Below the pieces are notes generated by a model that worked only from the letters and a program-made list of their open reading frames with translations, was not told the origin of the DNA and ran no database searches. Made by a program: the position numbers and the translations under genes. This document shows positions 42,320 to 42,771 of a stretch of 64,000 nt of DNA, piece after piece (position 1 is the first letter of the stretch; the number at the start of each line of letters is the position of its first letter). Source of the DNA: an uncultured Bacteroidales bacterium (GTDB lineage: Bacteria > Bacteroidota > Bacteroidia > Bacteroidales > UBA10428); NCBI GenBank assembly GCA_964592225.1, contig CAZQCO010000002.1:18401-82400 (forward strand). Reading direction: 5' to 3'.

Positions 42320-42396
42320 GTAGTACCACCTGGAATCCCTGCCTGTCCTGCTGAAGCAGTCAGTCAGGCAGGGAACCAGGGACACTCGGATTTTCA
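42320..42396 (-). repeat. Duplicated 3' half of tRNA-Phe with 35-nt insertion
   Basis: Without 42338-42372 it matches 42698-42739 at 40 of 42 nt. Confidence 0.92.
42338..42372. repeat. Nested palindromic (REP-like) insertion
   Basis: CCTGCCTG-TC-CTGCTGAAGCAG-TCAGT-CAGGCAGG; outer 8-bp inverted repeat, inner hairpin. Confidence 0.8.
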
Positions 42397-42651
42397 TTCC
42401 TTGGTAGCAGACAGAATAGCTCTTAATCTGCGTTTTCCGGCAGCTGATTTAAAATACTTCTCACGCTCCCTGGCAACAGTTGCCTCCCCACAATACTCTG
42501 TATAAAATAATCGCCATGGAATATAAAGCCTTGTTGAGCGGGTTTTACCCTTGTTATGATCTATTAATCTTTTTTCCGGAAACCTGGCAATTCCAACATA
42601 AATCCTCCTGCTGAAACTACTGACAATTGCATAGACATAAAATCCATCCAT
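42394..42651 (-). CDS. Small stand-alone GIY-YIG nuclease (85 aa from ATG 42651)
   Basis: YVYAI..IYVG..RL..HN.G..ST...PW.L.Y.E..A.EREKYFKS, conserved Tyr/Arg/His/Glu positions intact. Confidence 0.9.
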   Translation of the reverse strand: MDGFYVYAIVSSFSRRIYVGIARFPEKRLIDHNKGKTRSTRLYIPWRLFYTEYCGEATVAREREKYFKSAAGKRRLRAILSATKE

Positions 42652-42739
42652 TTTTAATCCTACTAAAAATCCCAAAGATCACTCTCCAGGATTTTCTGTG
42701 GTACCACCTGGAATCGAACCAGGGACACACGGATTTTCA
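42397..42739 (-). mobile_element. Putative 343-bp tRNA-targeted GIY-YIG cassette (no integrase)
   Basis: Bounded by direct repeats of the tRNA-Phe 3' half; contains only the tRNA half, a hairpin and the nuclease gene. Confidence 0.55.
42666..42695 (-). terminator. Hairpin directly after tRNA-Phe
   Basis: AAAATCCTGGAGA-gtga-TCTTTGGGATTTT, 13 bp including 3 G-U pairs. Confidence 0.5.
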
Positions 42740-42771
42740 GTCCGTTGCTCTACCTACTGAGCTATGGCACC
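42699..42771 (-). tRNA. tRNA-Phe(GAA)
   Basis: 73-nt cloverleaf: acceptor GGTGCCA/TGGTACC, anticodon arm ACGGA-CTGAAAA-TCCGT, T-arm CCTGG-TTCGATT-CCAGG; CCA not encoded. Confidence 0.97.

Follow-up and report, generated by a model that had tools for sequence, protein, structure and literature searches.

The 64,000-nt stretch analyzed here (the window; 64 kb of contig CAZQCO010000002.1 from an uncultured Bacteroidales bacterium) carries, at its tRNA-Phe gene, a compact cassette of 378 bp, in which the gene of an 85-aa GIY-YIG nuclease is framed by the intact tRNA on one side and, on the other, by a partial copy of the same tRNA interrupted by a palindromic hairpin (PAL). Our preferred reading, held with moderate confidence, is that this is one member of a large family of mini-cassettes resident in tRNA genes, which would be selfish in the manner of homing endonucleases and would use tRNA sequence as recombination homology. 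The architecture recurs across species, is an insertion relative to empty alleles, forms tandem arrays, has its hairpin inserted cleanly, encodes an intact nuclease domain under selection and is devoid of a recombinase.

The nuclease cassette at the tRNA-Phe gene

The locus is read on the minus strand. It begins with a Bacteroidetes-type -7 promoter box, TAGATTTG (42789-42796, read directly), 18 nt upstream of the intact tRNA-Phe (GAA) at 42698-42771 (ARAGORN; Rfam RF00005, 73.6 bits). The same box is found upstream of tRNA-Phe in two of the loci used for comparison (L087 and L092) and is likely the promoter of the whole unit. Between the tRNA and the nuclease open reading frame (ORF; 42394-42651, a catalytic domain only, Pfam PF01541) lies a spacer of 46 nt, with a weak, terminator-like hairpin (AAAATCC..GGGATTTT, 42666-42695; fold -6.2 kcal/mol, z -3.15). 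The ORF is followed by a pseudo-tRNA in two blocks: block 1 (42373-42400) is a copy of tRNA-Phe positions 29-56 (26/28 identical) and block 2 (42320-42337) a copy of positions 57-74 (17/18), both being direct repeats of the intact gene. PAL, a 35-nt palindromic hairpin (42338-42372; fold -15.4 kcal/mol, z -5.8), sits between them, at T-loop positions 56 and 57, and its perfect outer stem of 10 bp takes in one flanking base on each side. Because of this insert, the repeat offset is 343 for block 1 and 378 for block 2. Block 2 runs directly into the native tRNA-Phe terminator (42262-42317; a 13-bp perfect stem and then a T-run, fold -12.0 kcal/mol, z -4.8), equivalent to the one abutting the intact tRNA-Phe in L087, and is the displaced original 3' end of the tRNA.

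Measured against an empty tRNA-Phe unit, the extra DNA of the minus strand amounts to 378 bp (42338-42715, with the junction drawn at the T-loop), as given by the two offsets and by the empty sites L087 and L085 (see below); within it, the order is tRNA positions 57-74, spacer, ORF, pseudo-tRNA 29-56 and PAL. The initial annotation had the order of the parts right (tRNA-Phe, hairpin, 85-aa gene, second tRNA 3' half, terminator), overlooking the 35-nt PAL at 56|57 and treating the second half as contiguous. Its identity of 40/42 is recovered once PAL is spliced out, the uninterrupted stretches being 26/28 and 17/18, and its repeat period of 343 bp applies to block 1 alone. It had also placed the stop codon of the nuclease (42396-42394) at U33-G34-A35 of the copied anticodon loop, which the repeat register (offset 343) confirms.

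A chance origin of the repeat and palindrome arrangement is excluded: a 17-mer from the tRNA 3' end occurs twice in the window versus 0.10 times expected, and the PAL pattern once versus 0.00 expected. An assembly artifact was ruled out as well, since contigs from three other samples (L081 from JGI, identical to L084; L082; and L083) have the same cassette with a 100% identical ORF. The spacer hairpin is unlike the native tRNA-Phe terminator, as known from L087, so it probably came with the cassette. Two further features of the spacer were observed. Its first 13 nt 3' of the tRNA (CAGAAAATCCTGG, 42684-42696) are identical at 11/13 positions to the anticodon-loop region of the same tRNA (CTGAAAATCCGTG), and may be the relic of an older pseudo-tRNA unit. 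Inside the spacer hairpin, GATCTTTG (42672-42679) is one base from the Bacteroidetes -7 consensus TAnnTTTG and ends about 20 nt 5' of the ORF; from its sequence, it may be a weak internal promoter.

The protein is assigned to the GIY-YIG domain by Pfam (PF01541, E 4.8e-12, 46.5 bits versus a cut-off of 22.6, residues 4-73), and the catalytic set of the superfamily (Y7, Y18, R28, H32, and E64) is invariant in an alignment with 21 homologues. The AlphaFold model has a predicted local distance difference test score (pLDDT) of 94.9, and Foldseek matched it to UPF0213 BH0048 (1zg2), to Slx1 (6sei, 7cq3, and 4xlg; TM 0.64-0.67, probability 1.0) and to I-TevI (1ln0). A sequence profile compared with the PDB gave the same leading match (1zg2, 1.5e-8), followed by 1ywl (3.8e-8), SLX1 (1.7e-3), I-TevI (3.6e-3) and UvrC (0.79). 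On these comparisons, the nuclease sits on the UPF0213/Slx1 side of the GIY-YIG superfamily, not with UvrC or I-TevI. According to both Pfam and the model, all 85 aa are taken up by the catalytic domain, with no additional and no DNA-binding domain. The ratio of nonsynonymous to synonymous substitution rates (dN/dS) was 0.03-0.14 in nine of the ten measurable pairs and 0.29 in the remaining one; the catalytic domain is intact and under purifying selection.

No NCBIfam, PHROGs or PADLOC model matches the 85-aa protein, and a component of a defense system was rejected given the missing PADLOC match. With tblastn, no match was found in 50,697 phage records and none in the plasmid collection, leading us to discard a phage or plasmid origin. 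When clustered at 50% identity, the protein family, in whose cassettes the catalytic domain has 80-85 aa, comprises 3,999 clusters at E<=1e-10 and 18,326 at E<=1e-3.

Recurrence, empty sites and locus history

A scan of one genome per species returned at least 521 relatives, and the family counts given below rest on the best 80. These come mostly from Bacteroidota, besides six Patescibacteria, three Omnitrophota, two Ignavibacteria and four metagenome-assembled genomes labelled Gammaproteobacteria. A tRNA on the same strand directly adjoins the ORF in 72/80 loci and one on the opposite strand in none, while a partial copy of the local tRNA flanks the ORF on the side opposite the intact gene. 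The initial annotation had anticipated short GIY-YIG genes next to a tRNA and its partial copy, as well as tandem arrays and empty alleles in relatives (here L087 and L085), and all of these are found. By adjacency, 22 of the 72 loci belong to class A and 46 to class B, with four having a tRNA on both sides. In class A, which includes the window, the order is tRNA, terminator-like spacer, ORF and partial 3' copy, with PAL in the T-loop, so that the cassette lies between the tRNA body and its native terminator. Class B is the mirror arrangement (partial 5' copy, ORF, intact tRNA), located between promoter and tRNA body and with PAL in the D-loop; its ORF often stops within the tRNA, for instance with a TAG at positions 8-10. 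A TAnnTTTG box precedes the pseudo-tRNA in 15/41 class B loci, versus 2.8% of control windows, and with this -7 box before the 5' pseudo-copy, the old tRNA promoter would serve both the ORF and the real tRNA. The host tRNAs have at least eight identities (Arg, Leu, Phe, Asn, Met, Gly, Glu, and Val), and tandem arrays have a period of 378-452 bp (e.g., L001, L002, L003, L047, and L063).

Within the protein clade of the window, cassettes have changed host between the tRNAs for Phe, Arg, Gly, Glu, Leu and Val with the architecture unchanged. The 5' limit of the pseudo-half ranges in relatives from position 18 to about 50, and the stop codon is located in the D-arm (L092), before the pseudo-tRNA (L001, L002, and L094) or inside the palindrome (L051, L054, and L097). 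Among the relatives compared, the anticodon-loop TGA is common to the window and L050 only. Given this variation, the stop in the anticodon loop is incidental, a by-product of an ORF that simply runs into tRNA-Phe-derived sequence, and a designed stop at this place was rejected. Neither the anticodon arm as the defining point of entry nor the stops in the anticodon loops of relatives, both expected from the initial annotation, can be kept: what stays constant is the T-loop (in the mirror class, the D-loop), as marked by PAL. Its proposal of a minimal selfish nuclease unit with no recombinase is supported by the comparisons that it had suggested, the design being compact, inserted at a tRNA gene and recurrent.

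The cassette is, on sequence comparison, an insertion relative to empty tRNA-Phe alleles. In L087, whose M16 peptidase is 69% identical to that of the window, promoter, tRNA-Phe and terminator are contiguous; its promoter and tRNA align with window positions 42815-42692 at 87.1% identity, and its terminator with the window terminator after the pseudo-half at 81.7%. A second pair of loci gives the same picture. L092 has the closest relative of the window protein on a long contig (70% identical) and is of class A on tRNA-Phe, while L085, whose source is closely related to the window organism (DNA 92.4% identical over 5 kb), has an uninterrupted tRNA-Phe. The flank after the tRNA-Phe in L085 matches the flank after the pseudo-half in L092 at 78.4%, and the alignment of the two leaves clean extras in L092, namely PAL and a block made of tRNA 3' end, spacer, ORF and pseudo-tRNA. 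No recombinase or integrase was identified with Pfam over the 12 kb downstream of the window tRNA, so that the objection of a larger integrase-bearing island, raised in the initial annotation, was not borne out.

The flanks of these loci are mixed. L085 shares with the window the upstream flank containing the M16 peptidase (92.4%) and with L092 the downstream one; the window carries the terminator of L087, where the tRNA module has the reverse orientation with respect to the peptidase gene; and the homology of window and L085 ends 4 nt beyond the tRNA 3' end (around 42694). This mixture suggests an exchange between tRNA-Phe loci, with tRNA-Phe serving as a rearrangement junction.

A longer history can be followed in Algoriphagus, where four species (L061, L079, L017, and L080) have the cassette at one syntenic tRNA-Leu locus and the cassettes diverge about as much as their flanks (88% for L061/L079, 76-78% for L017/L061). 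The pseudo-tRNAs contain two or three different added hairpin inserts. One of these, at 53|54, has non-canonical stems that co-vary, and in L080 the copy of tRNA-Leu is full-length, with a disruption at position 26. Taken together, the switching of host tRNAs, the synteny in Algoriphagus and the dN/dS values indicate a gene that is both mobile over long time scales and durably maintained.

An orphan arrangement was also observed. In three assemblies (L094-L096), which show no intact tRNA nearby, the ORF is followed by a pseudo-T-arm with PAL, the acceptor 3' end and a terminator. The whole is located downstream of a gene for a type I restriction-modification methylase, and it points to a pseudo-tRNA and PAL tail able to travel with the ORF.

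The PAL hairpin

PAL is the hallmark of the family. The pattern CCTGCCTG..CAGGCAGG, with at most one mismatch per arm, is present in 70/80 loci, and in the 432 kb covered by these loci, 90 copies are found within 700 nt of the ORF versus three elsewhere. In the window, no further copy was detected, even at three mismatches. Class A PALs are usually 27-35 nt long and interrupt the T-loop as GGTTC|GAWTCC; the insert of the window and its site recur in L001, L002, L003, L050, L051, L053, L092, L094, and L097; class B PALs are usually the 19-20-nt CCTGCCTGCCGGCAGGCAGG and lie in the D-loop. Excising PAL and joining 14 nt from each side recreates the local tRNA, rare allele variants included, with neither duplication nor loss (scores of 46-56 out of 56 in most cases). 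In tRNA contexts, no target-site duplication surrounds PAL, such duplications being sporadic and confined to phage contexts. The insertion sites in the pseudo-tRNAs are positions 8-10, 13, 17, 21, 26, 31 and 55/56, all of which are unpaired or at stem junctions.

Across phyla, PAL keeps its arms but not their spacing, which ranges from 3 to 19 nt, and the 34-nt PAL of L001 is the exact reverse complement of the L002 PAL at the same site. Conserved arms, variable spacing and the occurrence of both orientations suggest that PAL acts as a hairpin and not as a fixed double-stranded site for a dimer. PAL also differs between strains that are otherwise nearly identical. The strains from the three other samples have two tandem copies of the 35-nt PAL, versus one in the window, with identical ORFs; in two of the three contigs the left flank reads ggaatc in place of ggttc, which makes it complementary to the right flank, and in one an arm has been corrected to give a perfect 15-bp stem. 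Judged by these differences in copy number and arms, PAL is a hot spot among otherwise identical strains, and the rewriting of its flanks and arms looks like hairpin-templated repair. Its role is the weakest link of our reading: PAL may be a hairpin acted on by the Slx1-like enzyme, an immunizing or repeat-breaking insert, or both.

Mechanism, alternatives and known systems

In the mechanism that we propose, the gene would be transcribed by read-through from the tRNA promoter, and the nuclease would break the DNA of a tRNA gene in the region of the D-loop or T-loop, possibly recognizing structure rather than sequence. The break would be repaired by homologous recombination with a cassette-bearing copy, the tRNA sequence providing the homology arms, and this repair would copy the cassette in, rebuild a working tRNA and leave a partial duplicate. 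If one crossover falls in a tRNA arm and the other in a pseudo-tRNA arm on the opposite side, the product is necessarily an intact tRNA together with a partial duplicate. PAL would mark the break point in the dead copy, probably as the cis-acting hairpin of the nuclease or as an immunizing, homology-breaking insert, and arrays would then arise by unequal exchange.

Several points weigh against this mechanism. Cleavage, target site and transfer, and with them the mechanism as such, are inferred from sequence. The protein has no DNA-binding domain with which to find tRNA genes, and the intact tRNA of an occupied locus should still be cleavable. The synteny in Algoriphagus and the strong purifying selection fit a host-useful or addictive gene equally well, and L094 has no intact tRNA nearby. 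Finally, PAL has an existence independent of the GIY-YIG gene: the exact 20-nt form, CCTGCCTGCCGGCAGGCAGG, occurs 42 times in 35 stretches of IMG/VR (L100-L134). Most of these copies are intergenic, in high-GC phages and with flanks of low complexity, and only one (L131, in a tRNA D-loop context) adjoins a family ORF, hmmsearch having identified no other family member in the 35 stretches. No neighboring gene family is shared by more than five of the 35, and the shared ones group related phages. Flanking direct repeats (7, 8, and 14 nt) were found at 3 of 40 distinct sites, and the T-loop/PAL junction, searched for in viral contigs, gave chance matches only. Two of the phage copies sit in the variable loop of a phage tRNA-Met. 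In L124 (2239-2330), this tRNA is still called by ARAGORN, as a 92-nt tRNA, and PAL may be a tolerated extra arm of a working tRNA; near 8616 of L101, the same tRNA-Met is truncated past PAL.

The occurrence of PAL apart from the gene lowers the confidence in any specific function for it and keeps alive an alternative in which PAL is itself mobile, as a tiny non-autonomous hairpin with the GIY-YIG protein as structure-specific mobilizer (compare REP/RAYT below), and the tRNA duplications are collateral, as survivors of PAL hits. This we consider improbable, despite a number of features that it would explain well: arms conserved across phyla with a variable loop and spacing (3 to 19 nt), the long PAL in both orientations at one site (L001 versus L002), clean insertion at loop or junction positions only, the repeated insertions built up at older loci, the variation in copy number within a strain, the copies dispersed in phage contigs and, as closest structural relatives of the protein, structure-specific nucleases of the Slx1 type. 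Against it, the window has no other PAL with three mismatches allowed, the 6-kb flanks of the 80 loci show no dispersal, the phage copies have no family ORF nearby, and the constant place of the ORF between tRNA and pseudo-tRNA is not accounted for by such a transposon itself. Moreover, we know of no GIY-YIG transposase. A related and bolder idea combines both parts, with PAL and the 80-aa GIY-YIG protein forming a two-part mobile system: a hairpin of 20-35 nt would be excised and reinserted in folded DNA, for example the cloverleaves of tRNA genes, at positions that are single-stranded or at stem junctions and with no target duplicated. Its mobilizer would be a Slx1-like nuclease reduced to its catalytic domain, whose gene would ride in the tRNA duplications that it provokes. 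We regard this as a tentative possibility and on balance unlikely. If true, it would be the smallest pair of autonomous and non-autonomous elements known and would assign, for the first time, a transposition-like chemistry to a stand-alone GIY-YIG domain.

The strong purifying selection (dN/dS of 0.03-0.14 in 9/10 pairs), the synteny kept across Algoriphagus species and the strict co-orientation with the tRNA, which in class B depends on transcription through the cassette, would all be expected of a domesticated, host-beneficial nuclease. Co-transcribed with the tRNA, such a protein might serve to process structures or R-loops where tRNA genes are highly transcribed, or to protect tRNA loci, the pseudo-tRNAs then being old scars. 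Patchy presence with empty alleles in relatives, different host tRNAs within one protein clade, tandem arrays, an orphan copy away from any tRNA (L094) and a distribution that crosses phyla are typical of selfish DNA and count against domestication, which we find quite improbable. RNA-guided targeting, in which the transcript of pseudo-tRNA and PAL is the guide, with PAL as protein handle and the tRNA-derived flanks directing the nuclease to matching tRNA genes, appears very improbable. It would give a reason for a nuclease without any DNA-binding domain, for PAL flanks that match the local tRNA allele nearly perfectly, down to rare variants, and for their co-orientation (and probable co-transcription) with the ORF. 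That identity is, however, equally well accounted for by gene conversion from the neighboring tRNA; pseudo-tRNA and tRNA have the same sense, and the decay of the former elsewhere shows no compensatory changes (e.g., the anticodon stem of L021), the 85-aa fold shows no apparent RNA-binding features, and no structured-RNA signal was obtained from Rfam or otherwise. The last candidate, a deletion remnant of a larger integrase-bearing island in tRNA-Phe with the second half as its attR scar, is effectively refuted. A displaced tRNA 3' half is the classic scar of an island, and the homology of window and L085 does stop 4 nt past the tRNA 3' end. Nevertheless, the 12 kb downstream of the tRNA contain no recombinase, the same design of 340-450 bp recurs in 72/80 loci at many tRNAs, including the 5'-side mirror class, a family-specific PAL interrupts the pseudo-half, and the empty site L087 shows exactly the cassette as extra DNA; with no recombinase nearby and a recurring compact design, the remnant was rejected.

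Among known systems, SegB is the closest analogue and best precedent for the cassette. SegB has about 220 aa, including a C-terminal DNA-binding domain. In phages T4 and T6, it is a free-standing GIY-YIG homing endonuclease located among tRNA genes (PMC2330249; PMC13096335), where it is associated with many tRNA isotypes, cuts within tRNA genes at RAWTSGAAC and drives a tandem amplification, dependent on UvsX/UvsY, that comprises segB and tRNA-Tyr (PMC13096335). It is described as a site-specific endonuclease, and the full-length protein is toxic, a property lost in a variant truncated at the C terminus (PMC2330249, PMC13096335). The likeness extends from a GIY-YIG gene embedded among tRNA genes of many isotypes to the amplification of nuclease gene and tRNA in tandem, as in the cassette arrays, and to the cleavage site itself, RAWTSGAAC being the reverse complement of the T-loop box GTTCSAWTY, where PAL splits the pseudo-tRNA of the window. 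The presence or absence at homologous sites that is a feature of Seg-type genes is also found here (window versus L087; L092 versus L085). On the other hand, SegB is borne by phages, whereas the window protein is chromosomal and has 85 aa and a catalytic domain only, and the cassette adds a conserved palindrome and a partial tRNA duplication. With no DNA-binding domain fused to the nuclease, all 85 aa being catalytic, and no sequence match to PHROGs or, by tblastn, to phage records, the cassette nuclease falls outside the SegB family.

By profile and fold, the protein is closest to Slx1 and UPF0213 (YhbQ/BH0048). The substrates of the structure-specific nuclease Slx1, which has Slx4 as partner and a RING domain, are branched and stem-loop DNA. 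Stem-loop substrates would fit the PAL sites at stem-loop junctions; Slx1 differs in having Slx4 and the RING domain, no NCBIfam model matches the window protein, and to our knowledge, UPF0213 proteins have no link to tRNA genes. With the repetitive extragenic palindromic sequences (REP) and their tyrosine transposases (RAYT), and with IS200/IS605 elements, the cassette has in common a short GC-rich hairpin as a cis element beside the gene of the presumed enzyme, the absence of target duplication and the conservation of structure, not of loop sequence. Those systems use HUH/Y1 transposases, whereas the only gene of the cassette is GIY-YIG, and where REPs number hundreds of dispersed copies, PAL here keeps to the pseudo-tRNA next to the gene. 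Islands and phages with tyrosine integrases likewise target tRNA genes, rebuild the tRNA and leave a displaced partial copy. They comprise kilobases, unlike the 378-bp cassette, which has no recombinase, a variable and PAL-interrupted duplication and a mirror class at the 5' side of the tRNA. Group I introns with a GIY-YIG gene in a tRNA anticodon loop resemble it in the association of such a gene with a tRNA and in a stop within anticodon-loop-derived sequence, yet the cassette has no ribozyme, its functional tRNA is uninterrupted and its ORF lies outside the tRNA. A group I intron or other known RNA was rejected, as Rfam gave only tRNAs (permissive search on the region, gathering thresholds on 20 loci). 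As for a miniature inverted-repeat transposable element (MITE), the arms of PAL are inverted repeats, but excision restores the tRNA exactly and there is no fixed target-site duplication, so this was rejected too. Integrase island, group I intron, REP/RAYT and MITE each miss a defining feature, and the cassette is thus none of them. Our literature search, which included the exact PAL strings and UPF0213/YhbQ, found no description of the family, of PAL or of small GIY-YIG genes linked to tRNAs, and the chance that its hairpin component sets the cassette apart as something categorically new is substantial.

If the reading of a selfish, homing-like cassette is true, thousands of lineages in the Bacteroidota, Patescibacteria, Omnitrophota and Ignavibacteria would harbor a minimal selfish gene adapted to life within essential tRNA genes, with the universally conserved tRNA sequence as portable homology, the tRNA being rebuilt and the leftover copy disabled by a hairpin. 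The principle of SegB, in which a cut at the T-loop box is followed by recombination that amplifies the locus, would extend from phages to bacterial chromosomes, and tRNA genes would be hot spots of nuclease-driven rearrangement. A very small structure- or site-selective nuclease, together with a defined hairpin, would become available for biochemistry. In addition, many of the tRNA pseudogene fragments and odd protein extensions found in databases would be accounted for.

Some minor matches in the window were discarded. A permissive Rfam hit to Plastid-ycf2 on the plus strand (42698-42771; 35.1 bits versus a cut-off of 65.7) is antisense to the tRNA and spurious, as it arises from the complement of the tRNA. 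A 10-nt match between the interior of PAL and the ORF was judged to be chance because that segment of the ORF is not conserved among homologues. The database entries of the family show a related side effect: gene callers overextend the small ORFs into tRNA-derived DNA or PAL (P0015, P0007, P0043, and many of P0056-P0205), resulting in spurious N- or C-terminal peptides such as MCPWFDS.., ..PGSLPD, ..LPAGRQ.., PACRQA and GSLPD. Conversely, some pseudo-tRNAs bearing PAL are called as tRNAs by ARAGORN and Rfam (L020, L080, and L097).

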